From an uncultured Victivallales bacterium (GTDB lineage: Bacteria > Verrucomicrobiota > Kiritimatiellia > UBA8416), in NCBI GenBank assembly GCA_964472315.1, contig CAYYJS010000007.1, positions 14,299 to 78,298 on the forward strand: 64,000 bases of DNA, read 5' to 3'. Below, piece after piece: positions 31,377 to 48,925 of the stretch. Both the position numbers and the translations under genes were made by a program. Under the pieces are notes generated by a model. That model ran no database searches. It had not been told where the DNA came from and was given only the letters and a program-made list of their open reading frames with translations. Each line of letters opens with the position of its first letter. Positions within the stretch are counted from its first letter, which is position 1.

Positions 31377-32249
31377 CTACAGCCAGAGCGGCATCGGCCC
31401 CGGGGTCTCGCGGTCCAGCCGGCGGGACGCCAGAAGCGCGTCCAGGGCGGCGAGCATGCCGGGCTTGTCTTTCGGCAGGCGGCCTTCCAGAGGCACGACG
31501 TTGGAGGCGTGATTGGCGCGGAAGACCGTGCTCGCGAGGGCGGTGCCGGCGATGAGCGCCCGCAGTTCGTGGACGACCTGCCATTCGGTCAGTGGCGTGA
31601 ACCGGCCGGCGGCCGTGTCGTCGTACAGCGGTGTGCCGGGGGTCGGCACCACACGCAACGCCGACAGGAGTCGCGGTTGCATGCGGGTGACGGCGGCGGC
31701 CGTCCGTTCGGCATGCGCGTCGCTGCGGGCGGCGCCGCCGAGGCCGAGGAGGATCATGACCGACAGGCGCAGACCGGCGGTCTGCGCCAGGATGCCGGCC
31801 TGAACCATGCCGGTGGCGGTCTCGCCCTTGTGGCAGTCGGCGAGAATGGACTCGTCGCCGCTTTCCAGCCCCATGTACAGAGTGTGCAGTCCGCGCGCGC
31901 GCAGGGCGCGCAGTTCGGCCTCGGACTTGCGTGCGATCGAGCTTCCGTTGGCGTAGAGACTGACGCGTGTCAGACCGGGCAGCGCCTCCCGGAGCAGATC
32001 GAGCATGGCGGCCAGTTCGTCGAAGGGGCGCGCCATGACGTCGCCGTCCGCCAGGAAGACGCGAGACGCGCGGGGCGAAAGGCGGGCTTCCGCGCGGATG
32101 AGCCGACGCACGGCATCCAGCGACAGCCGGCGGCAGGGGATGCCGCGATACATGCCGCAGAACGTGCAGCGATTGTGCGGGCATCCCCGGTCGACCTGCA
32201 GGATCAGACTGTCGGCTTCGGCCGGGGGGCGGTAGAGCGGCATATTCAT
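31377..32249 (-). CDS. Radical SAM protein
   Basis: CPHNRCTFCGM (CxxxCxxC) 20 aa from the N-terminus. Start at MNMPLYRPP (32249); the long ORF upstream of it is low-complexity. Confidence 0.75.
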   Translation of the reverse strand: MNMPLYRPPAEADSLILQVDRGCPHNRCTFCGMYRGIPCRRLSLDAVRRLIRAEARLSPRASRVFLADGDVMARPFDELAAMLDLLREALPGLTRVSLYANGSSIARKSEAELRALRARGLHTLYMGLESGDESILADCHKGETATGMVQAGILAQTAGLRLSVMILLGLGGAARSDAHAERTAAAVTRMQPRLLSALRVVPTPGTPLYDDTAAGRFTPLTEWQVVHELRALIAGTALASTVFRANHASNVVPLEGRLPKDKPGMLAALDALLASRRLDRETPGPMPLWL

Positions 32250-32253
32250 GGGG

Positions 32254-33201
32254 TCAGAGGTCGAGGGTGAGTTGTCCGCGGACGGTGACTTTGCGTCCCG
32301 ACGACAGGGCGGGATCGGACGTGTAGTACACGACGAATCGGACGCCGGGGAACTCCGCGGCGAGGGCGTCGCGGATGTAGTTCTCGACGGCGACGACATT
32401 CGAGTCATCGTCGTCCGAGAACCCCACGCTGATCGGCTTATCGAGGCCGCGCATGTGCGCGATGCGGATGACGTGTTCGACGAAATCGCGTATGGCGAAC
32501 TGCTTGCGCTCCTCGGTATCGGGCGAGGCGGTGACATCCGAGCCGAACAGGCGGCGGAACTCCGGGGACATGACGCCGTGGTACTTGCAGTGGTTGAGGT
32601 AGTAGTCGAGAAACTCCCTGTCCAGTTCGAAGAGGTGACCGGGGTCGAAGCAGGCGGCGTAGCCGCGCAGATTGGTGAGCATAACCCGCTTCTCCGACTC
32701 GTCGAGCACGACATCGATGAAGTACTCGACCGCGGCGCGGATGACGGAGGGACTGTGGCCGCGGGCGGTGACGATCGCGAAGAGGCGACCCTCGACGAGG
32801 GTTTGGCGGAACTTGCGGAAGCTGGGGGCGGCCGATGTCTCGCCGCGCACGACCTTGTCGATGGCGGCGCGCGTATCGCGCAGGAAGACGTTTTCGTTGT
32901 CGACGTCGATGTCGCGGAACTCCCGGAATGCCTCCTCCCAGTTGTCGTGAGGGGGGCGGTAATGCTCGCGATCCTTGCGGATGACGCTGAACACGGATGT
33001 GGACACGGCGTGCGGGACCCAGTCGCCGGCGTCGGTGCGCCGTTCCAGGTGGATGCGTGTGGGCATGTGGAAGATGTTATCGTCCCAGTCGAAGATGTAG
33101 TACTTCAGATCGCGGTCGGCGACCGAATAGTTGACCGGATGCCGGGGGCCGGGTTGGCCATCTTTGCGCTGGGGTGTCACAGAGCGGAGAGCATACCGCA
33201 A
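32254..33201 (-). CDS. Hypothetical protein, possibly HAD-like (YYIFDWDDNIF motif); partner of the radical SAM gene
   Basis: 315 aa; 4-bp gap to the radical SAM gene. FDWDDN resembles a HAD motif I (DxDx[T/V]) variant, but assignment is uncertain. Confidence 0.5.
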   Translation of the reverse strand: MRYALRSVTPQRKDGQPGPRHPVNYSVADRDLKYYIFDWDDNIFHMPTRIHLERRTDAGDWVPHAVSTSVFSVIRKDREHYRPPHDNWEEAFREFRDIDVDNENVFLRDTRAAIDKVVRGETSAAPSFRKFRQTLVEGRLFAIVTARGHSPSVIRAAVEYFIDVVLDESEKRVMLTNLRGYAACFDPGHLFELDREFLDYYLNHCKYHGVMSPEFRRLFGSDVTASPDTEERKQFAIRDFVEHVIRIAHMRGLDKPISVGFSDDDDSNVVAVENYIRDALAAEFPGVRFVVYYTSDPALSSGRKVTVRGQLTLDL

Positions 33202-33324
33202 CCGCGCGGGGTGTGGAACTGGAAAGTGTGGCGGCTGTCGCTATCGCCCGCTGGCTATCTGTCGTTTGCCGATCGGAGTTCCGGATTTCTCGTTGCGGTA
33301 AGCGGATGGGGTGCACCCCAGGGC

Positions 33325-33786
33325 ATGTCGGAAGCAGGACGCGAAGTGCTGGGAACTCGAAAGCCGAGTTCGATGCCGATGGCGCGCGAGTTCTACATGC
33401 CGAGTTGGAAGGCGTGGAGTCGACAGGTGCGGCAGGCGGGTTGCCCGGTCGTCGATGTGGACAGCGACGGGTTTATCGGCGATCTGATACCGCTGTGGAT
33501 CGAGTCGGGTGTCAACGCCTGCGACCCGATCGAGGTGGCCGCGCACTGCGACATCGTCGATTTCCGTCGGCGGTTCGGCAAGGCGATGACGTTCCGGCAG
33601 GGCATCGATAAGCGATGCATGGCCGCGGGCGGGAAGTCGCTGCGTGACGAGATGCGCCGGATCGAGCCGGTCGTTCGCGACGGCGGGTACATTCCGGGAT
33701 GCGACCACGGGATCCCCGCTGACGTCTCCTGGACGAACTTTCTCGAGTATTGCCGCCTGCTTGGCGGAGTGACCGGTTGGCTGTAA
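33325..33786 (+). pseudogene. C-terminal fragment of a uroporphyrinogen-decarboxylase-family (URO-D/MtaA-like) protein; N-terminus missing
   Basis: ~150-aa ORF ending DGGYIPGCDHGIPADVSWTNFLEY, typical of the URO-D family C-terminus. No room for the N-terminal ~200 aa because the minus-strand gene ends at 33201. Confidence 0.3.
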
Positions 33787-33898
33787 GGCCAGCCGGTTTT
33801 TGGCGTGCATGGCCCGGGCCGGCGGTCCGGGAAGGGGGCCGGACTCGCCGTCGCGATGGACCGCGGCGACACGGTATGCACGCGGCCGAAAATCAATC

Positions 33899-33912
33899 GT
33901 TAAAAAATTAAC
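33899..33912. promoter_or_regulatory. Candidate operator GTTAAAAAATTAAC (inverted half-sites GTTAA/TTAAC) 141 nt upstream of the [FeFe]-hydrogenase operon
   Basis: Exact 15-nt AT-rich match (GTTAAAAAATTAACA) also present at 48026..48040 ahead of the [NiFe]-hydrogenase operon; GC-rich background makes a chance match unlikely. Confidence 0.4.
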
Positions 33913-34053
33913 ATAATAGAGTTGACGTCCCGTGATGGGCCTGCCACACTTTTCGGATGCTTAGACCGGGCAGCCGTGTCAGGCACATGACGCGGCGCCG
34001 ACGGGCGGGCGCCCGGAGCTGTACGGATATTGACCCGGAACCGGAGGAAGGAC

Positions 34054-36216
34054 ATGGCCAAGCCGATCGACCTCATTGCGGCAAAACGGAGAGAGGCCGT
34101 CATACGCCTCTTCGAGCAGAAGTTCCAAGCGCACACGCGCATCACGGTGGGGTCCGCCACGTGCGAGAACGCGGCGGGCGCTTCGGAAGTCCATGCGCGG
34201 TTGCAGGCGCTGATGGATGAGCACTGCCCTCAGGGCGTCGTGGTCAGCCGTGTCGGGTGCGCGGGCAAGTGCGATATGGAGCCGGTCGTGACGGTGATTT
34301 CGCGCGGTACGATTCCGACCAAGTACGTGAACATGACGCCCCGGCGGGTGGAGCAGGTTTTCCGGGACCATATTCTGGGCGGCAAACCGGTGGAAGCCAT
34401 GTCGATGCGTTACAAGGCCGGGATCACGCATGCCGAACGCGTGGTCAGCGTCTGCGAGTGTGAGGTCTGCCTGAAGAATGGCGGCAAGCAGGTCGAGGAA
34501 GCGTTCCAGGCCGCCATCGAAGAGGCGGGACTGTCCGACCGCGTGGTGGTCATGCACTCGGCCTCGCAAGGGTTGGACGATATCGGGCCTGTGGCGCTCG
34601 TCTATCCGGACGACGTCATGTACCAGGAGATGACGCCGGATAGGGCTCGTGAGGTCGTGAAGAACCATTTCGTCGGCGGACAGCCCGTGGCGGAGTACGC
34701 CTGGTCGGGGGATCGTCTGACCAACCGATTTCTTCCGGTCTTCGGCGATGTTCCCTTTTTCGGCAAGCAGCTTCGCCTGACGCTTCGCAACTGCGGCGTG
34801 ATCGATCCGGAGAACCTGGACGAGTACTTGGCGGTGCGCGGTTATGAGGCCGCGGCGCGTGTGCTGACCGACGGTCAGGCGCAGGCCGTGATCGAGGCCG
34901 TCAAAGCGTCCGGCCTCCGCGGTCGCGGCGGCGGCGGGTTCTCCACGGGCACGAAGTGGGCCTTCGCGGCTCAGCAGCAGTCCGACGAGAAGTTCATCAT
35001 CTGCAACGCCGACGAGGGCGACCCCGGCGCGTTCATGGATCGCAGCACGATCGAAGGCGATCCCCACACCATTTTGGAGGGGATGATCATCGGGGGGTAC
35101 GCGATAGGCGCGACCCGCGGTTTCATCTACATCCGTGCGGAGTATCCGCTGGCGATCGTCCGTCTGGAGAAGGCCATCGCCGCCGCGCGTGCGGCGGGCA
35201 TCCTCGGCAAGCGCGTGATGGGTTCGGACTACGACTTCGATATCGAAGTGCGGCTGGGCGCCGGCGCATTTGTCTGCGGCGAGGAGACGGCGCTGATTCA
35301 CTCCATCGAAGGCAAGCGGGGCATGCCGCGTCCGCGTCCGCCGTATCCATCCGTCGAGGGGCTGTGGGGCAAGCCGACCGTCATCAACAACGTTGAAACG
35401 TTCGCGAACATCCCCGTGGTCATCCTGGATGGCGCCGAGTGGTTCAAGTCGCTCGGGACGAAGACCAGCGCGGGCACGAAGGTGTTTGCGCTTGCCGGCG
35501 ATGTGAACAACACGGGGTTGATCGAAGTGCCGATGGGCACGACCCTGCGCGATGTCGTCTACGGGGTCGGCGGCGGGATCAAAGGCGGGCGGGCGTTCAA
35601 GGCGGTTCAGACGGGCGGTCCGGCCGGCGGATGCCTGCCGGCCTCCGCGCTCGATACGCCGATCGATTACGACACGCTGGCGCGCGCGGGCAGCATCATG
35701 GGCAGCGGCGGCATGATCGTCATGGACGACGGCGCGTGCATGGTCAACGTCGCCAAGTTCTTCCTGGATTTCACGCAGAGCGAATCATGCGGCAAGTGCA
35801 CGCCCTGCCGCGAGGGCACGAAGCGCATGCTCGAGATCCTGACGCGCATCACGGCCGGCGAAGGGCGGGAGGACGATATCGACAAACTGCTGCGGCTTGC
35901 CGATACCGTCAAGAAGACGTCGTTGTGCGGGCTTGGCCAGGCGGCGCCGAATCCGGTGATCAGCACGATCACGCATTTCCGCGGCGAGTACGAAGCGCAT
36001 ATACGGGACAAGCACTGTCCGAGCGGCGTGTGCAAGGCACTGGCGAGTTTCGAGATCGATGCCGGGAAGTGCATCGGTTGCGGCGCTTGTCGCAAGGCCT
36101 GCCCGGTGCATTGCATCGCGGGTGAGACACGGAAGGTGCACGTCATCGACCAGTCCCGCTGCGTGAAGTGCGGGAGTTGTTATGAGGTCTGCAAGTTCGA
36201 TGCGGTAAAGAGGTGA
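34054..36216 (+). CDS. hydB: [FeFe]-hydrogenase NuoF-like flavoprotein subunit (HydB/HndC-like) with two N-terminal thioredoxin-like [2Fe-2S] domains and C-terminal 2x[4Fe-4S]
   Basis: RBS GGAGGAAGG; NADH/FMN-binding GLRGRGGGGFSTGTKW, SLCGLGQ (N3 cluster); CIGCGACRKACP and CVKCGSCYEVC ferredoxin motifs. Confidence 0.85.
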   Translation: MAKPIDLIAAKRREAVIRLFEQKFQAHTRITVGSATCENAAGASEVHARLQALMDEHCPQGVVVSRVGCAGKCDMEPVVTVISRGTIPTKYVNMTPRRVEQVFRDHILGGKPVEAMSMRYKAGITHAERVVSVCECEVCLKNGGKQVEEAFQAAIEEAGLSDRVVVMHSASQGLDDIGPVALVYPDDVMYQEMTPDRAREVVKNHFVGGQPVAEYAWSGDRLTNRFLPVFGDVPFFGKQLRLTLRNCGVIDPENLDEYLAVRGYEAAARVLTDGQAQAVIEAVKASGLRGRGGGGFSTGTKWAFAAQQQSDEKFIICNADEGDPGAFMDRSTIEGDPHTILEGMIIGGYAIGATRGFIYIRAEYPLAIVRLEKAIAAARAAGILGKRVMGSDYDFDIEVRLGAGAFVCGEETALIHSIEGKRGMPRPRPPYPSVEGLWGKPTVINNVETFANIPVVILDGAEWFKSLGTKTSAGTKVFALAGDVNNTGLIEVPMGTTLRDVVYGVGGGIKGGRAFKAVQTGGPAGGCLPASALDTPIDYDTLARAGSIMGSGGMIVMDDGACMVNVAKFFLDFTQSESCGKCTPCREGTKRMLEILTRITAGEGREDDIDKLLRLADTVKKTSLCGLGQAAPNPVISTITHFRGEYEAHIRDKHCPSGVCKALASFEIDAGKCIGCGACRKACPVHCIAGETRKVHVIDQSRCVKCGSCYEVCKFDAVKR

Positions 36217-36227
36217 GAGAACAACCG

Positions 36228-37985
36228 ATGAGCACAGAGGTTAAACTGACGATTGACGGAATTCCGACCGCGGCCGAGCCCGGCACGACGGTCATGCAGG
36301 CCGCGGACGACATTGGCATCCGGATTCCGCGGCTCTGTTACCACCCGAGTCTAAGCGTGCTCGGCGCCTGCCGAATCTGCATAGTCGAGGTCGAGGGGCA
36401 GCGGAACCCGGTGGCCTCGTGCGCCTTCCCGGTTGCCGAGGGCATGAAGGTGCGCACGTCGTCGCCGCTGCTGAGGCGATTGCGGCGCGACATTGTGGAA
36501 CTGCTGTTGGACAACCATCCGAAGGAATGCACGACGTGCGAGCGCTGCGGAAGCTGCGAACTGCAGGACCTGGCCCACAGCCTGGGCGTGCGCGAGCGGT
36601 TGTACGAGGGCGAGCGCAAACGCTTCGAGCGCGACTGCAGTTCGCAGGCCGTCATTCGCGATCCCGAGAAGTGCATCCTCTGCGGCCGGTGCGTGCGCGT
36701 GTGCGAGGAAGTACAGGGCGTGACCAATCTCAGCCAGCAGTACCGGGGATTCCTCAACTTCGTGGCGCCGGCGCACAACGACAAGATGGTCGATTCGGTT
36801 TGTATCCAGTGCGGGCAGTGCATCAACGTATGTCCGACCGCCGCCTTCGTGGAGCACAACAGCACGGATGTGGTGTTGGAAGCGCTGGCCAACCCGAACC
36901 TGCACGTCGTCGTGCAGACGGCGCCGTCCATTCGTGCCGCGCTGGGCGAAGGCTTCGGTTATCCGCCGGGAACGGCCGTCACCGGTAAGATGGTGACCGC
37001 CTCGCGCCTGATGGGGTTCGACAAGGTTTTCGATACGAACTTCAGCGCCGACCTGACGATCGTCGAAGAAGCGACGGAATTCCTCTCCCGCATGAAGGCT
37101 GGCGAGCGGCTTCCCCTGATCACCTCCTGCTCGCCGGGGTGGGTCAACTTCCTCGAGCATTTCTACCCCGAGTTGATCCCGTACGCGTCAAGCTGCAAGT
37201 CGCCGATGAGCATGCTTTCGACTTTGCTCAAGACATACTACGCCGACATCGCCGGGATCGATCCGAAGAATATCTTCGTTGTGGCGGTGATGCCCTGTAC
37301 GGCCAAGAAGTATGAGTGCGGGCGTCCGGAACATGTGGCGCCGTGGGGCAAGCCGTATACCGACGCGGTGTTGACGACGCGTGAGTACATCTGGCTGGCC
37401 AAGTGCCTCGGGGTCGACTTCGTGAATCTGCCGGACGGCGAGTTCGACAGTCCCCTGGGCGAGTCTTCAGGCGCCGGCGACATCTTTGGCGCGACCGGTG
37501 GCGTCATGGAAGCCGCCCTGCGGACCGCCTACGAGAAGGTTACGGGGAAGATATGCCCCGACCTGGACTTCGTGGCCGTCCGCGGCGTCGAAGGTCTCAA
37601 GGAGGCGGAGATCGACATCGACGGGACGATCGTTCGTGTCGCCGTGTCCAACGGACTGAACAACGCGAAGACGTTGCTGGATGCGGTGATTCAAGGTGAG
37701 CGGCAGTACCATCTGATCGAGATCATGGCGTGCCCTGGCGGATGTGTCGCCGGCGGCGGACAGCCGTATCCGCCGGACGGGATGTATGTTCTGGATCCCG
37801 AACTGACCCGGAAACGCGCGCAGGCGCTCTACGCCATCGACGCCGGCAAGAAACTGCGCAAGTCCCACGAGAATCCATCGATCATACGGCTCTACGAGAA
37901 GTTTCTGGGCGAACCGAACGGTCACAAGTCCCACGAGCTTCTGCATACATCCTATAACGCCAAGGAACCACGAGGGATACGATGA
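36228..37985 (+). CDS. hydA: [FeFe]-hydrogenase catalytic subunit (HydA/HndD-like) with N-terminal [2Fe-2S] and [4Fe-4S] domains; atypical L1 motif TSCSPGW
   Basis: RBS AAGAGGTG. H-cluster motifs L2 MPCTAKKYE and L3 EIMACPGGCVAGGGQP are present; L1 reads ITSCSPGW (canonical TSCCPxW). Confidence 0.85.
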   Translation: MSTEVKLTIDGIPTAAEPGTTVMQAADDIGIRIPRLCYHPSLSVLGACRICIVEVEGQRNPVASCAFPVAEGMKVRTSSPLLRRLRRDIVELLLDNHPKECTTCERCGSCELQDLAHSLGVRERLYEGERKRFERDCSSQAVIRDPEKCILCGRCVRVCEEVQGVTNLSQQYRGFLNFVAPAHNDKMVDSVCIQCGQCINVCPTAAFVEHNSTDVVLEALANPNLHVVVQTAPSIRAALGEGFGYPPGTAVTGKMVTASRLMGFDKVFDTNFSADLTIVEEATEFLSRMKAGERLPLITSCSPGWVNFLEHFYPELIPYASSCKSPMSMLSTLLKTYYADIAGIDPKNIFVVAVMPCTAKKYECGRPEHVAPWGKPYTDAVLTTREYIWLAKCLGVDFVNLPDGEFDSPLGESSGAGDIFGATGGVMEAALRTAYEKVTGKICPDLDFVAVRGVEGLKEAEIDIDGTIVRVAVSNGLNNAKTLLDAVIQGERQYHLIEIMACPGGCVAGGGQPYPPDGMYVLDPELTRKRAQALYAIDAGKKLRKSHENPSIIRLYEKFLGEPNGHKSHELLHTSYNAKEPRGIR

Positions 37986-38473
37986 GCACCAGCACTGACG
38001 GACTGAGCGCCGGGATTGTCGACTATATCAAGGCATGCCGGGAGAAGGAGCACCCCGAGAGCTATCTTATCCCCGTGCTCCAGAAAGTGCAGAGCGAGCA
38101 GGGCTTTCTGTCGAAGACCGGCATGAACCAGGTGGCGCAGCTCATGCAGGTGCCGACCGCGATGGTTACCGGGGTGGCCACGTTCTATCACTTCTTCACG
38201 TTCAAGCCGCGCGGAGAGAAACGCGTGACGGTGTGCATGGGGACGGCGTGCTTTGTCCGCGGTGCGGACAAGGTGCTCGACCGGGTCAAGGAACTGCTGG
38301 GGATCGGCGAGGGCGAGACCACGAGCGACGGCCGGTTTTCCATCGACTGCGCGCGTTGCATTGGCGCGTGCGCGCTGGCGCCGGTCGTGCTGGTAAACGA
38401 TAAGGTGTATGGCAACGTGACCACCGCGCAGGTCGAGAATATCCTCGCGGATCACGGTTTCGTTGTCGCGTGA
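37982..38473 (+). CDS. hydC: NuoE-like thioredoxin-fold [2Fe-2S] subunit of the hydrogenase (HydC/HndA-like)
   Basis: CMGTAC...CARCIGACALAPV motif (Cx4C...Cx3C); ATG overlaps the hydA stop (ATGA). Confidence 0.8.
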   Translation: MSTSTDGLSAGIVDYIKACREKEHPESYLIPVLQKVQSEQGFLSKTGMNQVAQLMQVPTAMVTGVATFYHFFTFKPRGEKRVTVCMGTACFVRGADKVLDRVKELLGIGEGETTSDGRFSIDCARCIGACALAPVVLVNDKVYGNVTTAQVENILADHGFVVA

Positions 38474-38565
38474 GGAGCGGCGTTGGCATGCCCGATTGCC
38501 GGTTGCGCAACGCGCCCGGCATGCAGGCCCGCGAACGGGCGACCAAACAAGAGAGGCTGATGGCA

Positions 38566-38949
38566 ATGAGCAAGAAGGTTCTGTTGATCGACGATGACGT
38601 GGACCTGGTGGCTGCCAACACCGCGGTGCTGGAAGCCGAAGGCTATACGGTTGTAAGCGCGAACGACGGCGCGGCCGGCATCGACATGGCCAAGGCCGAG
38701 AAGCCCGACCTGGTCATTCTGGATGTGATGATGGCGCACGATACCGAAGGGTTCGAGGTGAGCCGCAAGATGCGTGATTTGCCCGAGCTCCGGAAGACGC
38801 CCATCATCCTGCTGACCGGCATCAAACAGGCGATGAGCCTGCCGTTTCGCTTCGAACCCGATCAGGATTGGCTGCCGGTCAAGGTCATTCTGGAGAAGCC
38901 CGTTCAGCCCGCCCGGTTGATCGCGGAGGTAAGCAAGTACCTGGCGTAG
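38566..38949 (+). CDS. Stand-alone CheY-like response regulator receiver protein
   Basis: RBS GAGAGG; KVLLIDDDVD...DLVILDVMM...ILLTG receiver motifs; last gene of the [FeFe]-hydrogenase operon. Confidence 0.7.
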   Translation: MSKKVLLIDDDVDLVAANTAVLEAEGYTVVSANDGAAGIDMAKAEKPDLVILDVMMAHDTEGFEVSRKMRDLPELRKTPIILLTGIKQAMSLPFRFEPDQDWLPVKVILEKPVQPARLIAEVSKYLA

Positions 38950-38965
38950 GCATGCCTACACCAGG
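38940..38965. terminator. 26-nt near-perfect palindrome (CCTGGCGTAGGCA|TGCCTACACCAGG) between convergent REC gene and hypB: candidate bidirectional terminator
   Basis: Inverted repeat with one mismatch, centred between two converging stop codons 6 nt apart; no U-tract. Confidence 0.4.
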
Positions 38966-39744
38966 CTTTGCAGGTAGGCGAGCCAGGCGGCCATGCCATC
39001 GCCGGTACGGGCGCTCAGTTCCAGGACAAAAACGCCCGGCCGGACGGTGCGCAGGTTTTCGCGACAGCGGGACAGGCTCCAATCCAGGTGCGGGATCAGG
39101 TCGGTCTTGGTCAGAAGCACCACCGGCGCCTGCGCGAACAGCGACGGGTACTTGGCCGGCTTGTCCTCGCCTTCGGTCACCGACAGCAGGGCGATCTTGA
39201 AATCCTCGCCCAGGTCGAAGGCCGCGGGACAGACGAGGTTGCCGACGTTCTCGATGAACAGGATGCGCGTGTCGTCCGCAACCGCCCCCGGGAGCGCCTC
39301 GGCGACGCGGTCGGCGTCGAGATGGCAGGCGTTGTTCGTTTCGATCTGCGTTACGGGCGCGCCCTTGCCGCGCAAGCGCCGCGCATCGTTATCGGTCTTC
39401 TGGTCGCCCGTGATCACCGCGCACGGAAGCTTGCCCCGCAGTGCCGTCAAGGTCTTCTCCAGCAGGTAGGTCTTGCCGGATCCGGGCGATGAGATCATGT
39501 TGATCGCCACGATGCCGCGCGCCTTGAGCCACGCGCGGTTCCGCCGCGCGACCTCGTCATTGTGGCTGAGGATCCGTTGCTCGAGCCGGATGACTCGACC
39601 GGATTCGTCGTGTTCGTGCGCATCGCCGCCGACGGCATCGTGCGTATGGCTGTGGGCCGGGCGGCCGTCGCCGTGGTGGTGCCCGTGTCCCCCGGTATGC
39701 GCGTGCGTGTGGTGAGGATCGTCGCATCCGCAATTTTTACACAT
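38956..39744 (-). CDS. hypB: Hydrogenase nickel-incorporation GTPase HypB with His-rich N-terminus
   Basis: RBS AAGGAGAC; MCKNCGCDD...HHTHAHTGGHGHHHG His-rich metal-binding stretch; P-loop GSPGSGKT. Confidence 0.85.
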   Translation of the reverse strand: MCKNCGCDDPHHTHAHTGGHGHHHGDGRPAHSHTHDAVGGDAHEHDESGRVIRLEQRILSHNDEVARRNRAWLKARGIVAINMISSPGSGKTYLLEKTLTALRGKLPCAVITGDQKTDNDARRLRGKGAPVTQIETNNACHLDADRVAEALPGAVADDTRILFIENVGNLVCPAAFDLGEDFKIALLSVTEGEDKPAKYPSLFAQAPVVLLTKTDLIPHLDWSLSRCRENLRTVRPGVFVLELSARTGDGMAAWLAYLQSLV

Positions 39745-40117
39745 TCGAGTCGTCTCCTTGCTTGTCGCCACCCGGCGCATCGACCTCGACGGCCGTCAGC
39801 AGCAGATCCTGTCCGCCCGTCAGCCGCACGTCGCACGAACCGCAGGCTTCGCACACGTAGATCGGGAAATCCGGCGTGGCGTCGATGCCGCATGCATGGC
39901 AGTGCAGGTGTGCCGGCACGGCCGTGATATCGAGGGCCGCCCCGCCGACGCTCGTGCCCTCCGCCGCGAAAGGAAAGGCCATCCGCAGGGCTTCCGGATC
40001 GACGCCGCTGAGGGCGCCGACCGAGACGTGTACGGCGCTGACGCGCGACGATCCCGCGTCTTTCGCGACCGCCGTCACCTGGTCGACCAGCGCCTGCGCT
40101 ATCGATAGTTCATGCAT
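39737..40117 (-). CDS. hypA: Hydrogenase nickel-incorporation protein HypA
   Basis: Starts MHELSIA; zinc ribbon CHACG...CEACGS; overlaps the hypB start by 8 nt. Confidence 0.8.
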   Translation of the reverse strand: MHELSIAQALVDQVTAVAKDAGSSRVSAVHVSVGALSGVDPEALRMAFPFAAEGTSVGGAALDITAVPAHLHCHACGIDATPDFPIYVCEACGSCDVRLTGGQDLLLTAVEVDAPGGDKQGDDSNV

Positions 40118-40119
40118 GG

Positions 40120-41139
40120 TCAGCAAATCCTCGGCAACAGTTCCCCGCGCGGCACATCGATCAGGCGGCGGCCGCCGGTCAGCGTGGTCATCGACACCCG
40201 GCCCGCCACATCGGTCACCCGGCCGATCGCGGCGGCGCGTCCGCCGTTCTCCATACCGCGCCAGCGGCGCACAATCTCATCCGAGACGTCGGGACCGCAA
40301 ACGAGCGCCAGGCGCCCTTCGCTGGCGACCTGCAGCGGATCGAGTCCGAGCATCTCGCTGACGCCGCGTACGCCCGCCGAGAGCGGTATCGCCGTTTCGT
40401 CGAGCTCGATGCCGACCGGTCGTCCGTCGACGAGCTCGTTCAACACCGCGGCGAGCCCGCCGCGCGTGGGGTCCCGCATGAAGCGGATCTCGCCCGCGAG
40501 ATCGGCCACCGCCAGGACAAGCTCGTGCACGGGCGCGCTATCGCTCAGGGGTCCGTTGGCGATATGGATGTCTTCGCGGGCCGCGAGCACGGCAAGCCCG
40601 TGTTCGGCGATCGTGCCGTTGATGAGCACGTGGTCGTCGGGCTTCAGCAGGTTGGCGCCGAGCCTGAATGCGGGTAGCAGTTCGCCGATACCGGCCGTGT
40701 TGACAAAGATGCCGTCGGCCTGTCCGCGCGCGACGACCTTCGTATCGCCCGTGACGATCTCGACGCCGCAGCGCTCGGCGGCGGCCTTTACGGCGTCTAG
40801 CACCCGCCGCAAGGCGGCCATCGGGAACCCCTCCTCCAGAATCAGGGATAGCGAGAGCCACCGCGGACGGCCGCCGGCGACGGCGATATCGTTGACCGTC
40901 CCGTGTACGGCGAGATCCCCGATGTTGCCGCCGGGGAACTCGTAAGGCGTTACGACGAAACTGTCCGTCGTGAAAACCAGGCCCCGACTGGGCAATGCCA
41001 GCGTCGCCGCGTCCGGCAAGCCCTGCAGCGCCTTGGCGCTGAAGCGCGACACGATTTCCGCATCGATGAAAGCGCGGGTCAGCCGTCCGCCGCCGCCATG
41101 CGCCAGTTGAATCGTCTCGTCCACGTCATCGCCTCGCAA
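40120..41139 (-). CDS. hypE: Hydrogenase maturation carbamoyl dehydratase HypE
   Basis: AIR-synthase-like fold; C-terminal PRIC motif typical of HypE. Confidence 0.85.
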   Translation of the reverse strand: MRGDDVDETIQLAHGGGGRLTRAFIDAEIVSRFSAKALQGLPDAATLALPSRGLVFTTDSFVVTPYEFPGGNIGDLAVHGTVNDIAVAGGRPRWLSLSLILEEGFPMAALRRVLDAVKAAAERCGVEIVTGDTKVVARGQADGIFVNTAGIGELLPAFRLGANLLKPDDHVLINGTIAEHGLAVLAAREDIHIANGPLSDSAPVHELVLAVADLAGEIRFMRDPTRGGLAAVLNELVDGRPVGIELDETAIPLSAGVRGVSEMLGLDPLQVASEGRLALVCGPDVSDEIVRRWRGMENGGRAAAIGRVTDVAGRVSMTTLTGGRRLIDVPRGELLPRIC

Positions 41140-41165
41140 ATCGCTTCATCCAACGCAACTTCTTA

Positions 41166-43412
41166 TCATGATGCATGCAGTCCGGCAACCACGGCCTGCC
41201 CGAAGGCGATGCCGCCATCGTTGGGCGGGATGCGCTGATGGGTGAGCACCCGAAAACCCATCGCCTCCAGTCGGGGTGCGAGAATTCCGCACAGCAGCCG
41301 GTTCATGAACACCCCGCCGGTGAGCGCCACCGTCCGCAAGGCGCTGGAGCCGGCCGCGGCGTCGACCATGCGGCAGGCGGCATCGGCGACGGCCAGGTGG
41401 CAGGCCAGCGCCTGAGTCGCGCGAGCATCCGCGTCGAGTTCGCCGAGGTCCGAAAGATACGCGATGGCCGGCGTCCAGTCGACTTCGATGCAGCCATCGT
41501 TGCGCTCGTACATCGCGAACGGCAGCGATGCGGGGTGTCCCGCCGGAGCGCGCCGTGCGGCCGCTTCCAGACAGATGGGGGCCTGTCCCTCGTAGGACAG
41601 CGCGACGGGCGCGAGGCCCAGCAGCACGGCAAAGGTGTCGAACAGGCGCCCGGCGGCGTGCGTGAGCGGGGCATTGAGTCCGCGCTCGCACTGGCGTCGC
41701 CAGACCGCGCAGGCTTCCTCGCCGGCGCCGTAACGGCTGAGGATATGGGGTAGGGGAACGATGCCGCCCTGTTGCCAGCGGGCGACAAGCTGGCGCACCG
41801 GTTGGTGGACGGCGGCATCGCCGCCGGGCAGCGCCGCGGGACGGAACGTCGCGCGGCGCGTGATGCCGGATGCGGTTACGGCGAGCAGTTCGGCGCCCCA
41901 GATGGCGCCATCGGGCCCAAGCCCCGTGCCGTCGAAACAGAGCGCCAGACCCTCGGTTTCGCCGTGTTCGGCGAGGCAGCCGACCGCGTGGGCGGCATGG
42001 TGCTGCACCTCGACAACCGGCACGCCGGCGCGTGCGGCCAGCAGATGGCCCAGGCGCGTCGCGTGCATGTCGGGGTGTGCATCGACGGCCACGCAGGCGG
42101 GTTGGCGGTCGAAGAAGATCGGCAGTTCGCGCGCGGCGCGTTCATGGGCGGCTATGGCTTCGGGCGTCTCCAGGTCGCCGATATGCGGCGACAGCACGAC
42201 CCGGGAGTCATAGCCGAGCGCGATCGTGTTCTTGAGTTCGGCGCCCATGGCCAGGACGTTGCGCGCCAGCGGATGGGTCAGTGTAATGGCCGACGGCGCG
42301 TAGCCTCTGGCGCGGCGCCAGACCTGCGGGCCACGCGCCTGCAGCACGACCAGCGAGTCGTCGTTGCGCAAGTTCACTTCACGGTCGTGCACGAGAAAGC
42401 AGTCGGCGATATCCGCGAGCCGACGGTACGCTTCATCGTTCGCGATGCAGATGGGTTCGGCGCGTTTGTTGCCGCTCGTCATGACCAGATAGTCGAACGG
42501 CGGCGTGGGATCGTCCGGCAGTCCCTGCGCGAGCAACAGGTGCAGCGGGGTCGTGGGGAGCATAACCCCGAGCGTTTGGGTGTCGGGTGCGATGAGATCG
42601 AGGGCAAGCGGAGTCTCCGATCGCTCGTCCACGTCCAGAACGACGATGGGTGCCTGGGGCGACGTGAGCAACTCCTCCGCTTCTGGCGTTACGCGGCATA
42701 CGCGGCGGGCGCAGGCGAGGTCACGCGCCATGACGGCGAAGGGTTTGGCCGGGCGTCGCTTCCGATCGCGGAGGAGGGCGATGGCCGGCCGGTTCTCCGC
42801 ATCGACGGCGAGCAGGAATCCGCCGAGACCGCGCACGGCGACGGTCTGGCCGGCGCGTAGGCGGCGTCGCGCTTCGCGCAGGGGTTCGCCGGCGATCGAC
42901 CGGCCCCGGCAATCGGTCAACGAGACCCGCGGTCCGCAGGCGGGGCATGCCGTCGATTCGGCATGAAAACGCCGGTTGGCGGGGTCGGTATACTCGGCGC
43001 GGCACCGCGGGCACAGCGGGAAGGCGGCGAGCGTGGTGCGCTCGCGATCGTAGGGCATGGCGTTGACGACCGTGTAGCGCGGTCCGCAATTCGTGCATGT
43101 CGTAAACGGGTACCCATGACGGCGGTCGTCGGGGTCCATGATCTCGGCACGGCATTCGGCGCACATGGCGAGATCGGCGGGAATGCTGACGTCCATGGGT
43201 TCGTCATCCACGCTGGACGCGACGGTGAACGGTGCGGGTACGGCGCCCGAGGGTAGCGGGACGTCGGAGATGAGTGCGATCGAGTCGATGGCGGCGATGG
43301 CGGGCAGGGAGGCCGGCAGGCGCGCGGCGAAGTCGTCGATGGCGGCGGGAGCGCCTTCCAGCACGATCAGGACCGACCCGGAGCGGTTCAGGACATGGCC
43401 GCCCAGCCCCAT
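41166..43412 (-). CDS. hypF: Carbamoyltransferase HypF (acylphosphatase + two Zn-fingers + YrdC + Kae1-like domains); true start probably upstream of the first ATG
   Basis: CTNCGPRYT...CPRCRAEY...CPACGP zinc fingers; YrdC and Kae1-like segments. The acylphosphatase motif TVQGVGFRPSVYRLA is encoded in-frame upstream of ATG 43412 (to about 43505) with no ATG. Confidence 0.8.
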   Translation of the reverse strand: MGLGGHVLNRSGSVLIVLEGAPAAIDDFAARLPASLPAIAAIDSIALISDVPLPSGAVPAPFTVASSVDDEPMDVSIPADLAMCAECRAEIMDPDDRRHGYPFTTCTNCGPRYTVVNAMPYDRERTTLAAFPLCPRCRAEYTDPANRRFHAESTACPACGPRVSLTDCRGRSIAGEPLREARRRLRAGQTVAVRGLGGFLLAVDAENRPAIALLRDRKRRPAKPFAVMARDLACARRVCRVTPEAEELLTSPQAPIVVLDVDERSETPLALDLIAPDTQTLGVMLPTTPLHLLLAQGLPDDPTPPFDYLVMTSGNKRAEPICIANDEAYRRLADIADCFLVHDREVNLRNDDSLVVLQARGPQVWRRARGYAPSAITLTHPLARNVLAMGAELKNTIALGYDSRVVLSPHIGDLETPEAIAAHERAARELPIFFDRQPACVAVDAHPDMHATRLGHLLAARAGVPVVEVQHHAAHAVGCLAEHGETEGLALCFDGTGLGPDGAIWGAELLAVTASGITRRATFRPAALPGGDAAVHQPVRQLVARWQQGGIVPLPHILSRYGAGEEACAVWRRQCERGLNAPLTHAAGRLFDTFAVLLGLAPVALSYEGQAPICLEAAARRAPAGHPASLPFAMYERNDGCIEVDWTPAIAYLSDLGELDADARATQALACHLAVADAACRMVDAAAGSSALRTVALTGGVFMNRLLCGILAPRLEAMGFRVLTHQRIPPNDGGIAFGQAVVAGLHAS

Positions 43413-43516
43413 CGCCCGGGCCAGGCGATAGACCGACGGACGGAAGCCGACGCCCTGGACGGTGCCGGTCAGACTGTACGTGCGGCGGACAAGCAGCGTC
43501 GGTTGGGGTGCGGGCG

Positions 43517-43969
43517 TCAGCTTTGCACCTCCTTCAGCGCGACGGCGACATAGTCGGCGAACCGTGCTGCCACGGCCGCGGAAAGGCCGTCGCCCATGGT
43601 CATCGAAGCGGGCTGGATGGCCACGATGCGGATTGGCGGCACCGGCTGCCCGATCTGGCGCGCAAGCTGAACCAGCTTGAGCACGTCGCCCTCGTGCGTC
43701 GATATGGTCCCGACGACCTTGCGGGAGTCGACGTCCTCGGGGCCGAAGGCGATCCAGTCCCCCGGCTGCCCGCCGAAGTCGGCGGCATCGACGATGACGA
43801 CGCCGTCGGTCTCCGGCTCGAAATACGTCAGCACCTGCATGCCGTTGTTGCCGATCTCGACGGCCTCGAAACCGTCGTCAAGGTGGTTGTCGGCGATATG
43901 CTCGACGATGCGGAGCCCGATACCGTCATCGCCCATGGCGTAGTTACCGAGACCGAGCAGGTAGCGCAT
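43517..43969 (-). CDS. Hydrogenase maturation endopeptidase (HycI/HoxW/HybD family)
   Basis: MRYLLGLGNYAMGDDGIGLRIVE N-terminus and internal His-containing motif typical of [NiFe]-hydrogenase C-terminal proteases. Confidence 0.75.
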   Translation of the reverse strand: MRYLLGLGNYAMGDDGIGLRIVEHIADNHLDDGFEAVEIGNNGMQVLTYFEPETDGVVIVDAADFGGQPGDWIAFGPEDVDSRKVVGTISTHEGDVLKLVQLARQIGQPVPPIRIVAIQPASMTMGDGLSAAVAARFADYVAVALKEVQS

Positions 43970-44051
43970 GTCCTGGTCCTTGATCGGGCGCGAAAAGAGG
44001 CGGGGCGCCGGCGTTTGCCGGCGCCCCGCAAGGGCTGGCTCTTCGCGCCGG

Positions 44052-45392
44052 TTACTTCTTGAACGTCACATCGAGGTAATGCGTGGAGCAGGAGATGCAG
44101 GGGTCGTAGGCACGGACCAGCATCTCGAGTCCCAGTTCCATCTCCTTTTCGGACTTGTTGGCCGCCACCAGTTCGGGGACGAGCGCGTTGAAGTCCTGTT
44201 GGATGTTGGCGTGATTCTGCCCGGTGGGAATGATGCAGTTGCCCATCGTGCAGAAACCGGCCGGATCGTAGGCGTACTCGTGGAACAGGATGCCACGCGG
44301 CACTTCCGTCGCGGCGGCGCCGCGTGCAAATCGCGTGGGCGTGGCCGGCTTCTCGTCCTTCAGTCCCTTTGTGAGCAGCACGTCGATGTACTCGACGGTC
44401 TTGAAGACGCTGTGGACGCATTCCACGAACTGCGCGATGCTGTTCATGTAGGGGTTGAAGCACAGGGGCTTCAGACCGAGCCCGACGGCCAACTTCCTGG
44501 CCTCGGGATGGAGTTGGTCGTGGCTGTTGTTGAAACGGGCCAGGGCGCCGGCCATGTAGCTGGCCATATTGTGCTTGGCGTACTTGGCCGTCGACTGGTC
44601 CACCACGTATTCGTTCGTCACGGAACGGTAGTCGGCGACGTCGATCAGTTCCTGAGCGCCGTCGGGCATCCGGCAGCCGATCTTGCCGTCATACAGGCCA
44701 TATTCCTTGTCGTCGACCAACGCGACGTACTCGGTCTGGCGCGTGAACGGTGGAATGCCGCCGGCGAGACTGAGCAGCGTCTTATAGGTTTCGACCGCAT
44801 CGGGTACGCAAGCCAGCAGCTTGTCCTTCAATTCGCGCAGGTTGGCTTCGGCCTCGCGCACGGTGCGGGCGCCGCCGGGCAGCGACGCGAAGCCGCCGAC
44901 GATCGCGCGGGTGGGGTGCGTGGTGCGTCCGCCGATGCAGCTTCCCCATTCGTGGCCGAGGCGCTTCATGCGCAGGGCGCGCTTGACGACCTCGCCGTGT
45001 GTCGGCACCAGCGGGAAGACCGAGGGCACACCCAGCAGATCGGGCGCTACGAGGAAGTAGACATGCAGGACATGCGAGTCGAAATTCTCGGCATGCTTGA
45101 GAATGCGCCGCAACAGGTCCGTCTGCTCCGAGATTTCGATGCCCAAGGCGGCCTCGGTCGCCTTCAGGGAGGCGAGGGTGTGGCCGACCGAACAGATGCC
45201 GCAGATGCGGCTCGTGATGCGCGCCACTTCGCTGTAGTGGCGTCCGCGCACCATCGCTTCGAAGAACCGCGGCGCCTCGGGCACCTGCCACTGGCAGGTC
45301 TCGACGGTGCCGTTGGTCACGTTGACCACGATGTTGCCGTGGCCTTCGACGCGCGTGAGATGATGGACATTGATCTTCGCGTTCTTTGTCAT
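44052..45392 (-). CDS. [NiFe]-hydrogenase large (alpha) subunit, group 3 (sulfhydrogenase/HydA-like)
   Basis: N-terminal RVEGHG, RICGICSVGH (L1 CxxC) and C-terminal DPCISCSTH (DPCxxCxxH) Ni-Fe-ligating motifs. Confidence 0.85.
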   Translation of the reverse strand: MTKNAKINVHHLTRVEGHGNIVVNVTNGTVETCQWQVPEAPRFFEAMVRGRHYSEVARITSRICGICSVGHTLASLKATEAALGIEISEQTDLLRRILKHAENFDSHVLHVYFLVAPDLLGVPSVFPLVPTHGEVVKRALRMKRLGHEWGSCIGGRTTHPTRAIVGGFASLPGGARTVREAEANLRELKDKLLACVPDAVETYKTLLSLAGGIPPFTRQTEYVALVDDKEYGLYDGKIGCRMPDGAQELIDVADYRSVTNEYVVDQSTAKYAKHNMASYMAGALARFNNSHDQLHPEARKLAVGLGLKPLCFNPYMNSIAQFVECVHSVFKTVEYIDVLLTKGLKDEKPATPTRFARGAAATEVPRGILFHEYAYDPAGFCTMGNCIIPTGQNHANIQQDFNALVPELVAANKSEKEMELGLEMLVRAYDPCISCSTHYLDVTFKK

Positions 45393-46141
45393 TATGCGTC
45401 ACCTCTGAAGTTGGCCGTGAACATGCGGGACTTGTTCCGGGCCCACGTTTCGGGCAGTTTGCCGTTCTCGATCAGCACCTTCTCCATCGATTCCTGGTTG
45501 GCGTTATCGACCATGCCTCGGCAGGCCTCGCAGGGAATCCCGTCGGCGGGGCAGGGCGCCCCGCAACCGGCGCGGGCGATGGGACCGAGACAATGGTCGC
45601 CGTCGTCATAGCGGCATACGGTGCCGCGCCGTTTGCATTCCATGCAGACGGGATAGGAGGGGATATAGACCTTCGCCGTCCCGTTGACGAGCTGGGTTAC
45701 GACGCGGATGAATTCGCCGCGATCCATCGGGCAGCCATGGACCTCGTAGTCGACTTTGATGGCCGCGGAGATCGGCAAGGCCTTCTTGGATGCCAGGTGC
45801 GGACGGTCCTTGTCGTCGCCGTAGACCTCATTGGCGTAGTCCGACGTATGGTTCTTCAGGGCGTTGATGCCTCCGCAGGTGGCGCAGGCGCCATAGGCGA
45901 CAACCACCTTTGCCCGGTTGCGAATCTCCTCCAGGCGCCGGCGGTCGGATTCGCGCGTAAACGACCCTTCGACGAAGGCCACATCGATGGGACCGGTCGT
46001 CTTCTCGGACATCGCTTCGCGGAACTCGACCGGTTCCACATTCTCCAGGAGTTGGACGAACGGCTCGCCGAAATTCGTCAGTTCAATCTGGCAACCTTCG
46101 CAACAGGCGAAGTCGAACCATGCACATTTTACCTTGGCCAT
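45392..46141 (-). CDS. [NiFe]-hydrogenase small (delta) subunit, group 3b-like
   Basis: Cys clusters FACCEGCQ, GACATCGG and CPM...C typical of the cytoplasmic small subunit. Confidence 0.8.
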   Translation of the reverse strand: MAKVKCAWFDFACCEGCQIELTNFGEPFVQLLENVEPVEFREAMSEKTTGPIDVAFVEGSFTRESDRRRLEEIRNRAKVVVAYGACATCGGINALKNHTSDYANEVYGDDKDRPHLASKKALPISAAIKVDYEVHGCPMDRGEFIRVVTQLVNGTAKVYIPSYPVCMECKRRGTVCRYDDGDHCLGPIARAGCGAPCPADGIPCEACRGMVDNANQESMEKVLIENGKLPETWARNKSRMFTANFRGDA

Positions 46142-46980
46142 TATATCGCCTCCTCAAGCGCTGCAATGTCGGAGAACCGGAAGACGGGGCCGTCCATACA
46201 GACGTACTTGTCGTTGATCTGGCAGTGACCGCATTTGCCGACACCGCACTTCATGCGACGTTCCAGGTCGACGTAGACGTTCGACCGCGGGATGCCGAGC
46301 TTGTCGATCTCGGCGATCACGAACTTGTACATGATCGGCGGACCGCAGATGATGACCCGCGTGTCGGGACCGATATCCCCGACCTTCGGGAACAGCGTGG
46401 TAATCACGCCGACGTTCCCTTCCCAGCCATGGGCGGGACGGTCGACGGTTTCAAGATAGCGCATGCAGGAGCTGCATCGCCACATCTCCAGGTCCTCCGC
46501 GAACAGCAGGTCGCTCGGGCTCTTGGCGCCGAAGAACAGCGTGAACTTGCCGAACTCGTCGCGCCGATCCAGGATATACTGGATCATGCTGCGCACGGGG
46601 CACAACCCGATGCCGCCGGCGACGATGAGGACGTCGTGGCCTCTGAACTCCTGCACCGGGAAGCCGTTGCCGAGCGGGCCGCGCACGGTCAGCGTATCGC
46701 CGACATTCTGCGATGCGATGGCGCTGGAGACCTTGCCGATGACGCGGACGACCAGATCGAAACGGTCTCCGCTGGTGGGCGAACTGGCCATGCCCAGCGG
46801 AATCTCGCCGTAGCCGAAGCGGCCGACTTCGACGATCTGGCCGGGTTGGTACTCGAACTTGCCGCCGTTCCGCAGCTTGAGTCGGAAGTGTTTCTCGGTG
46901 GCGGTGATCATGTCGGCTTTGACGATCTCCGCGACCTGCGGGAGAAAGATGTTCTCGTTGGTTGTATGACAGGCGGACAT
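46141..46980 (-). CDS. Sulfhydrogenase gamma-like subunit (FAD/NAD(P)-binding oxidoreductase with C-terminal [2Fe-2S]; AsrB/PyrK-like)
   Basis: Ferredoxin-reductase-type FAD/NAD folds plus C-terminal CGVGKCGHCQ cluster motif. Confidence 0.8.
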   Translation of the reverse strand: MSACHTTNENIFLPQVAEIVKADMITATEKHFRLKLRNGGKFEYQPGQIVEVGRFGYGEIPLGMASSPTSGDRFDLVVRVIGKVSSAIASQNVGDTLTVRGPLGNGFPVQEFRGHDVLIVAGGIGLCPVRSMIQYILDRRDEFGKFTLFFGAKSPSDLLFAEDLEMWRCSSCMRYLETVDRPAHGWEGNVGVITTLFPKVGDIGPDTRVIICGPPIMYKFVIAEIDKLGIPRSNVYVDLERRMKCGVGKCGHCQINDKYVCMDGPVFRFSDIAALEEAI

Positions 46981-46982
46981 GC

Positions 46983-48005
46983 TTACTGCTCCATGATCTT
47001 GTTGATGACAGTGGCGGGGTTCGCGATGTTGGCCGTGCAGGCACCCGAACAGCGGCCGCAGCCGGTGCAGGCCGGGCCGCCCAGCACGTCGTTAAGGTAG
47101 GCCGCTTTGCGCATGAACCGGTGGCGATAGCGCTCGCTGCGGTCCTCGCGGAAGTTCTCGGTGCCACCCATGGACGTGACCTCGGAGAACTCGCTCGTCA
47201 GGCAGGCATCCCACAGGCGGAAACGCGTGCCGGACTTGCCATCCACGTTCCATTCGTCCTGCACGTCGAAGCAGTAGCACGTCGGGCAGACGATGTTGCA
47301 GCTCCCGCAGGAGAAGCAATCCTTGGACAGTTCCTCCCAGACCGGCGAGGAAAAGGACCCGCGAACCTTCTCGCGGATTTCGTCGGCGGTTCCGTTCAGC
47401 TTCTCGGGGCAGTTGCGCTCGGCGTCGGCGTTGGCTTTGGCCGCGGCGGCGACTTGGCGGGTGGTGGCCGGCGTAAAGGTCCCGAGCGCGAGCAGGGACT
47501 CGCCGCGCGGCGTCAGCGTTTCGATCGCGTAACCGCCCGCGATGCGGGTCATGAACAGGTCATGGCCCGTGGCGGGTCGGCCGGCGTTCATCGTGCCGAA
47601 GAACGCGTGCTTGTAGTGGTTCTGGACGCTGGCGCCGATGACGATGGTGGCCTTGCGGTACGCCATGTAGTTGTTGTCGACCTTGCGGTCCTGGTAGAAG
47701 GTGTCCGACATGGCGATCCCCTTGATGTCATAGGGATGCACGCCGAGGAGCACCTGTTCCTTCGGGTCGAGACAGGCTCGGAAGCCGCTCGCATCGAAGG
47801 CGATCAGATCCTGTTTCGTCGGGAAGAACGCCTTCTTCGGCGGCAGGATGGTGGTGTCGTAGTCCAGTCGCAGATCATCCACGGTTTCGAGCCGCTCGAA
47901 TACGAAACGTGTTCGTTTGGCCACGGGCGCGATGACCGGATACTTGCCCATCAGGCCTTCCACGAACGCGGCAAGGTGCTGATCGCTCAGGAAATGTTGC
48001 TGCAT
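46983..48005 (-). CDS. Sulfhydrogenase beta-like subunit ([4Fe-4S] protein, AsrA-like)
   Basis: CFSCGSCNIVCPTCYC and CTGCGRCSGAC motifs. Start moved to MQQHF (48005) preceded by AAGGAT; the ATG at 48020 lacks an RBS. Confidence 0.75.
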   Translation of the reverse strand: MQQHFLSDQHLAAFVEGLMGKYPVIAPVAKRTRFVFERLETVDDLRLDYDTTILPPKKAFFPTKQDLIAFDASGFRACLDPKEQVLLGVHPYDIKGIAMSDTFYQDRKVDNNYMAYRKATIVIGASVQNHYKHAFFGTMNAGRPATGHDLFMTRIAGGYAIETLTPRGESLLALGTFTPATTRQVAAAAKANADAERNCPEKLNGTADEIREKVRGSFSSPVWEELSKDCFSCGSCNIVCPTCYCFDVQDEWNVDGKSGTRFRLWDACLTSEFSEVTSMGGTENFREDRSERYRHRFMRKAAYLNDVLGGPACTGCGRCSGACTANIANPATVINKIMEQ

Positions 48006-48025
48006 GCCATATCCTTTCATGTGCT

Positions 48026-48039
48026 GTTAAAAAATTAAC
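48026..48039. promoter_or_regulatory. Second copy of the GTTAAAAAATTAAC motif, in the 5' leader 21 nt upstream of the [NiFe]-hydrogenase operon start
   Basis: Identical 15-mer to the one at 33899..33913. Confidence 0.4.
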
Positions 48040-48147
48040 AGATCGGTGTTTAGCGCGAAACTACCATGCGTCGCTGGCCACATCAAGCAGTTATCTGAAG
48101 AAATCCCACCCGTGCCCGCCGCAGGGGGCAAAAGGCCTGTCAGCAAC

Positions 48148-48681: not shown

Positions 48682-48703
48682 CGAACGACCTTCCGTTATC
48701 GGG

Positions 48704-48925
48704 CTACGCGGCACGTTCTACCACGATCGCCGGGTTGACCTGCTCGCGCAAAATGCGTTCTATGCCCTGTTTCAGCGTCATCATGGCGTGCGGACAGCCC
48801 CCGCACGCGCCTTTGAGACGCAGTTTGACGTTGGTGCCGTCAATTGCCACGACTTCGAGATCGCCGCCGTCAGCCTGCAGCATCCCGCGAAGCTGTTCGA
48901 GTTTGTCACGAATCTGCTGTTCCAT
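48704..48925 (-). CDS. NifU-like (Nfu) Fe-S cluster scaffold domain protein
   Basis: GACGGCPHAMMTLKQGIE motif (CxxC of the Nfu domain). Confidence 0.7.
   Translation of the reverse strand: MEQQIRDKLEQLRGMLQADGGDLEVVAIDGTNVKLRLKGACGGCPHAMMTLKQGIERILREQVNPAIVVERAA

Follow-up and report, generated by a model that had tools for sequence, protein, structure and literature searches.

Organization of the Two Hydrogenase Operons

The 64-kb stretch of DNA analysed here, which we refer to as the window, carries an [FeFe] hydrogenase operon on the plus strand and a [NiFe] hydrogenase operon on the minus strand. An earlier note on this DNA had named hydB, the sulfhydrogenase beta subunit and the two hydrogenase operons, and Pfam confirmed these identities. 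The genes, as assigned by Pfam, are as follows.

34054..38949, plus strand: hyd operon as a whole
34054-36216, plus strand: hydB, NuoF-like
36213-37985, plus strand: hydA, [FeFe] hydrogenase
37982-38473, plus strand: hydC
38470-38949, plus strand: receiver-only response regulator
38956..48005, minus strand: NiFe operon (sulfhydrogenase-type, group-3b-like) with maturation genes
46983-48005, minus strand: sulfhydrogenase beta
46141-46980, minus strand: sulfhydrogenase gamma
45392-46141, minus strand: sulfhydrogenase delta
44052-45392, minus strand: sulfhydrogenase alpha
43517-43969, minus strand: hycI
41166-43412, minus strand: hypF
40120-41139, minus strand: hypE
39737-40126, minus strand: hypA
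38956-39780, minus strand: hypB

Within the NiFe cluster, hypF is directly followed by hypE (40120-43412), and hypC and hypD are absent; they must therefore lie elsewhere if the NiFe enzyme is matured. At the related loci L083 (14553-19425) and L084, hypC and hypD sit between hypF and hypE. In the window (48148-48955, minus strand) and in the relative L081 (1031-1817), the NiFe operon is preceded by a NifU-like gene and by a gene for a conserved hypothetical protein (181-188 aa, no Pfam match). The receiver-only response regulator ends the hydB-hydA-hydC operon in the window (38470-38949) and in every close relative, and a PAS or Cache histidine kinase is often found just before hydB or after the receiver (receiver and kinase loci in relatives: L166 13423-13812; L169 5273-7136; L172 8077-10008 and 14458-15266). 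This arrangement suggests a HydABC type with a conserved two-component partner whose output is other than DNA binding.

A Palindrome Repeated Upstream of Both Operons

The window contains two exact copies of GTTAAAAAATTAACA, the first at 33899-33913 and the second at 48026-48040. Both have the plus-strand orientation as written and lie at the positions given in the earlier note. The hydB ATG at 34054 lies 141 nt past the first copy, and the sulfhydrogenase beta ATG at 48005 (minus strand) lies 21 nt from the second. The latter start codon is supported by the length of the closest homologues, most of which likewise have 340 aa, and the distances of 141 and 21 nt reported previously are therefore right. 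The window has a GC content of 64.9%, and the 15-mer itself is 13% GC (2/15) rather than the ~7% first proposed.

Allowing up to three mismatches to GTTAAAAAATTAACA still returned only these two matches in the window, where the expected number is 0.06, and two matches were obtained in 0 of 100 dinucleotide-preserving shuffles. The pattern GTTAA-N4-TTAAC, as well as the looser GTNAA-N4-TTNAC, was confined to the same two sites, and a scan of all 15-nt windows found stretches with at most two G or C nowhere else. The flanks of the two copies show no mutual similarity, and the asymmetric spacer of the box lies in opposite orientation relative to the hyd and NiFe genes.

Resemblance to Rex Operators

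Rex is a well-known repressor whose signal is the NADH/NAD+ ratio. When lengthened to 18 nt, the two sites read TCGTTAAAAAATTAACAT (box 1) and CTGTTAAAAAATTAACAG (box 2), and each matches 16 of the 18 positions of TTGTKAANNNNTTMACAA (TTGTTAA-N4-TTAACAA), as well as 16 of 18 in the 18-bp inverted repeat TTGTKAA-N4-TTMACAA that serves as the ROP criterion. Relative to the TTGTGAA variant, one position per half-site and the outermost bases differ. The canonical Rex/ROP operator TTGTGAANNNNTTCACAA of Streptomyces, Bacillus and Thermus (structures 3ikt, 2vt3 and 1xcb) has the same dyad geometry and the same G3, T4, A6 and A7, while the window boxes carry T (or C) instead of G at position 5 of each half-site. 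The earlier note had dismissed Rex after a comparison with TTGTGAA-N4-TTCACAA alone, which was too narrow given the 16/18 match to the GTTAA variant and the rex genes that adjoin the operons of relatives.

The published Rex consensus TTGTTAANNNNTTAACAA is attributed to Ravcheev et al. (2012) in PMC5367854. In Thermoanaerobacterium saccharolyticum, a predicted Rex site, TTGTTAATAAATTAACTA, precedes the hfs [FeFe] hydrogenase operon and another, TTGTTAAATAATAAACAA, precedes the ech-hyp [NiFe] operon (PMC5886521); overall, predicted sites are placed upstream of hfsABCD, ech-hyp, hydG and adhE (PMC5886521; PMC5367854, citing Ravcheev et al., 2012). In Caldicellulosiruptor bescii, gel shifts support Rex at the NiFe, FeFe, hydG and rex promoters, with a consensus quoted as TTGTGAA-N4-TTCACAA (PMC6391272). 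A single regulator that precedes both hydrogenases is therefore an established theme in Thermoanaerobacterium and Caldicellulosiruptor, and that regulator is Rex.

The window shares with the Clostridia/Thermoanaerobacterales operator an 18-bp dyad that has T at position 5 and a 4-nt spacer rich in A/T, and in both cases sites stand before [FeFe] as well as [NiFe] hydrogenase operons. It differs in that the boxes here often have C at position 2 (yCGTTAA) and other outermost bases, that the host is a 65% GC Lentisphaerae/Victivallales-like bacterium instead of a low-GC Firmicute, and that the hydrogenases are of the HydABC type and a group-3b-like sulfhydrogenase instead of the Hfs and Ech of T. 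saccharolyticum. The likeness to the C. bescii regulon lies in one NADH-sensing repressor acting on both hydrogenase classes and on itself, although binding there was shown experimentally and in the window is predicted from sequence.

The hyd Promoter

Promoters were compared among relatives. A HydB scan of GTDB representative genomes and JGI metagenomes gave relatives of at most 69% identity, mostly too distant for promoter comparison, while a protein search with contig look-ups supplied the useful relatives at 73-83% identity (73-77% for HydB). The elements of the hyd promoter are listed below.

33897..33914, no strand assigned: Rex-type box 1, TCGTTAAAAAATTAACAT, upstream of hydB; half-sites CGT.AA/TTAAC invariant in 6 orthologous hyd promoters
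33921..33926, plus strand: putative -35-like hexamer TTGACG, 7 nt past the 18-mer box
33944..33949, plus strand: putative weak -10-like hexamer CACACT, placed by its spacing 17 nt after the -35

Across the six hyd promoters (window, L166, L175, L172, L086 and L002), the sole invariant block is CGT.AA....TTAAC, and the upstream regions are otherwise unalignable. TTGAC lies 6-8 nt downstream of the box in all six, and the orthologues have a -10-like TATGGT, TAATAT, TAGAGT, TAAGGT or TATTCT at 17-18 nt past the -35. The short hydB upstream region of L169 (75% identity) contains no box. A strict sigma-70 promoter scan and a terminator scan returned nothing in either intergenic region of the window, the TTGACG -35 included, and the promoter calls therefore rest on the cross-species footprints. 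Transcription of hyd is predicted to start near 33956, which would place the centre of box 1 near -51. A repressor that overlaps the core promoter would classically sit elsewhere.

A Rex-type box followed after 5-8 nt by a TTGAC -35 also recurs where hydB operons begin in Anaerolineae and other distant phyla (L023 508-560; L137 5056-5110; L003 7981-8020; L086 7898-7950), and this recurrence implies a fixed box position near -51.

The NiFe Promoter

The corresponding elements upstream of the sulfhydrogenase beta gene are the following.

48024..48041, no strand assigned: Rex-type box 2, CTGTTAAAAAATTAACAG (on the gene strand, CTGTTAATTTTTTAACAG), conserved in L081, L083 and L084
48058..48066, minus strand: extended -10 TGgTAGTTT; TGnTAnnnT columns invariant in 4 orthologous NiFe promoters
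48081..48086, minus strand: -35-like hexamer TTGATG; CTTG invariant in the NiFe promoter alignment
48095..48109, minus strand: probable second box, decayed (GTGGGATTTCTTCAG); its L081 counterpart, TCGTGAAAATATTCACAG, is intact

The closest homologues of the beta subunit are those of L081/L082 (83% identity), L083 (78%) and L084/L085 (77%), and in all of them the dyad lies about 20-30 nt before the start codon, as CTGTTAATTCTTTAACAG, TCGTTAATTTCCTAACGA and TCGTCAATTTCTTAACGA, respectively. Alignment of the four NiFe promoters leaves as invariant elements the -35 (cTTG), the TGnTAnnnT extended -10 and the box GT.AATT...TAAC. Relative to the transcription start predicted near 48050 (minus strand), box 2 of the window would span about +10 to +27, with its centre near +18, just past the extended -10.

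L081, the closest NiFe relative, has two boxes (1980-1997 and 2052-2069), one of the GTGAA type at about -51 and one of the GTTAA type at about +18, so that a canonical-like box stands beside a GTTAA-type box in the same promoter. Between the GTGAA-type box, TCGTGAAAATATTCACAG, and the -35 that follows it are 8 nt. Of these two boxes the window keeps only the downstream one, with what is probably a decayed remnant of the upstream one (48095-48109), as judged from the alignment with L081.

The position of the boxes bears on whether a protein need be involved at all. The AT-rich run might act on its own, as an UP element or bent DNA at hyd and as a 5'-UTR hairpin at the NiFe operon: box 1 occupies about -60 to -43, the UP-element zone, and box 2 would be transcribed and can fold into a 7-bp stem of -5.1 kcal/mol. 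UP elements are A/T-rich tracts at -40 to -60 that are directional and carry no dyad requirement. While box 1 is placed suitably for one, box 2 lies at about +18 and the boxes of rex promoters lie over the -35, and what is conserved is the dyad GT.AA/TT.AC and not AT-richness, the spacers being variable. An RNA hairpin is possible for box 2 only, leaving box 1 and the rex-promoter boxes unexplained; a hairpin of box 1 reaches no more than -1.5 kcal/mol and would sit ahead of the predicted start. The sole match to Rfam was the tRNA at 54077-54165, and the leaders matched neither a riboswitch nor any other RNA. No single protein-independent role accounts for a dyad that is found at three different promoter positions (-51, +18 and across the rex -35), and we regard a protein-independent element as quite improbable.

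Conservation and Specificity of the Box

Conservation in orthologous hydrogenase promoters, a check that the earlier note had called for, was borne out, as the box is kept in 6 hyd and 4 NiFe lineages, with L169 the one lacking it. At 67-83% protein identity the half-sites are kept at the same promoter position, and the spacer and flanks have diverged. The spacers vary yet stay A/T-rich (AAAA, ATAT, GAAA, AAAT, TTCT and TTTC). These observations bear on a further explanation, that the pair is a chance repeat or a functionless remnant of duplicated or mobile sequence. Only two copies exist and they have an identical spacer, which a shared origin could explain, but the result of the shuffles, the dissimilar flanks and the retention of the site amid otherwise diverged intergenic DNA make this extremely unlikely.

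We derived a palindromic weight matrix from 11 boxes, in which G3, T4 and A6 are invariant (22/22 each), A7 is nearly so (20/22) and the spacer is almost all A or T. The window boxes score 28.6 and 29.2 bits, and all training sites score at least 18.8 bits. No further site of at least 12 bits was found in the window or in 7 close loci, a partly circular test that nonetheless shows a very low background of matrix matches. In 2.37 Mb of other loci, outside the training set, only 12 sites reach at least 15 bits, mostly at the heads of hydB operons or beside rex. Several of these sites, including those of L023 and L137 from other phyla, have a TTGAC -35 5-8 nt downstream of the box. For this clade the alignments point to a box of the form yCGTyAA-W4-TTrACGr, an 18-bp palindrome.

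rex Genes Near the Operons of Relatives

In the closest HydB orthologues, L166 (77% identity) and the P0124 contig (75%), a rex gene lies immediately upstream of hydB-hydA-hydC-receiver. Both encode 211-aa proteins with PF06971 (winged helix) and PF02629 (Rossmann fold). Solved Rex structures (5zz5, E = 3e-36; 3wg9; 3ikt) match the L166 protein along its entire length, and the Rex proteins of these relatives align end to end with the canonical Rex structures. The gene order in L172 is rex, histidine kinase, hydB; in L083 rex adjoins hypB; and, by tblastn, several more distant loci also have rex a few kb or less upstream of hydB. In L166 (TCGTCAAAAGTTTGACAG) and L172 (TCGTTAGAAAATTGACAG), the rex promoter itself carries a Rex-type box that overlaps its -35, and in L046 one lies just upstream of rex. 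Boxes over rex's own promoter are the classic Rex autoregulatory arrangement.

The predicted -10 of rex (L166 7915-7965; L172 7259-7300) and of the kinase gene (L086 7925-7961) lies about 6-10 nt before the start codon, which suggests leaderless or near-leaderless mRNAs in this clade.

The window itself has no rex gene by tblastn and by Pfam of nearly all larger ORFs, and the latter search found no helix-turn-helix regulator gene either. The place that rex takes in relatives is held by a 512-aa ORF with no Pfam match (32248-33786, plus strand). A radical SAM ORF (31377-32714, minus strand) overlaps this ORF by about 470 nt, and one of the two starts must therefore be mis-called. A weak hairpin and T-run cover the stop codon of the 512-aa ORF (about 33775-33805). 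The receiver-only gene of the hyd operon, which the earlier note had put forward as a candidate regulator, was rejected as the box-binding factor, since Pfam finds a receiver domain alone and no DNA-binding domain.

These gene lists also bear on another dimeric regulator, either a CRP/FNR-family protein acting on TGTTA-N6-TAACA or an undescribed one, with the linkage to rex coincidental. CRP/FNR-type dyads have the form TGTGA-N6-TCACA or TTGAT-N4-ATCAA. Read as a 5-N6-5 palindrome, the motif comes close to the former in outline, TGTTA-N6-TAACA agreeing at 4/5 positions per half-site, and both the lack of rex in the window and the presence of a locus, L169, with neither rex nor box would fit such a regulator. 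The spacing and conserved flanks of the boxes nevertheless fit Rex better, the conserved G3, T4, A6 and A7 being Rex-box positions. No CRP/FNR gene (PF00325, PF13545) or other helix-turn-helix gene appears in the Pfam gene lists of the window or beside the orthologous operons, whereas rex is a recurrent neighbour and boxes overlap its own promoters. We consider another regulator unlikely.

Proposed Mechanism of Hydrogenase Regulation

Taken from the sequence comparisons, both copies are most likely operators (ROP boxes) to which a repressor of the Rex family binds in response to the NADH/NAD+ ratio, and we infer that Rex is also the binding protein in this organism. The opposite orientations of the boxes and the variable A/T spacers of orthologues fit a symmetric dimeric protein and not a directional promoter element. 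The earlier suggestion of a common redox operator for both operons is supported by phylogenetic footprinting; the part of it that set Rex aside is not.

At a low NADH/NAD+ ratio, a Rex dimer would bind the 18-bp palindrome at both promoters. At the NiFe promoter, Rex on the box near +18, past the extended -10, would keep RNA polymerase from clearing the promoter. At the hyd promoter, the box near -51 abuts the -35 in the UP-element position, and bound Rex may occlude the alpha C-terminal domain of RNA polymerase and sigma region 4. As NADH accumulates, Rex would leave the DNA and both hydrogenase operons would be derepressed together, so that surplus reducing equivalents could leave the cell as H2. 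The direction of regulation is that predicted for a repressor.

The strictly conserved placement of the hydB box, in Lentisphaerae-like lineages and in Anaerolineae and other phyla (L023, L137), suggests that a box 5-8 nt before the -35 could instead of simply overlapping the core promoter serve a dedicated mode of action, by occlusion of an UP element or with Rex in a positive or architectural role; alternatively, a non-Rex regulator may read the box in this genome, in which rex is missing from its ancestral position. We see a small chance of this.

Returning to the paired Rex operators, this is most likely a known type of element in an ordinary regulatory arrangement, here in a little-studied Lentisphaerae/Victivallales-like group, and the box pair reveals no new kind of regulator. 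Our literature search found no description of Rex in this high-GC lineage, to which the Rex regulon and a GTTAA-type box would be extended. The Rex model offers a simple, testable account of H2 metabolism in uncultured PVC-group fermenters, in which NADH/ferredoxin-linked [FeFe] and sulfhydrogenase-type [NiFe] enzymes would be switched on together as the NADH/NAD+ ratio rises. The clade-specific box model could be used for regulon prediction in these metagenome-assembled genomes.

Other Features of the Window

Two further regions stand apart from the hydrogenase genes. At one end of the window (11-3630) is a partner-switching-like module that comprises a receiver, a receiver-SpoIIE phosphatase-HATPase_c_2 fusion (834-2516) and a STAS-domain protein (3292-3630). 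Towards the other end (54077-61643), the tRNA gene at 54077-54165 is followed by a stretch of lower GC content (about 0.60). Its genes include one for an AAA_14/DUF4143 ATPase, a PIN-like and a nucleotidyltransferase gene that look like a toxin-antitoxin pair, one for a protein in which YhcG/DUF1016 is fused to the C-terminal domain of a type I restriction system, and one for an HsdM methylase. The stretch may be a defence island that inserted at the tRNA.
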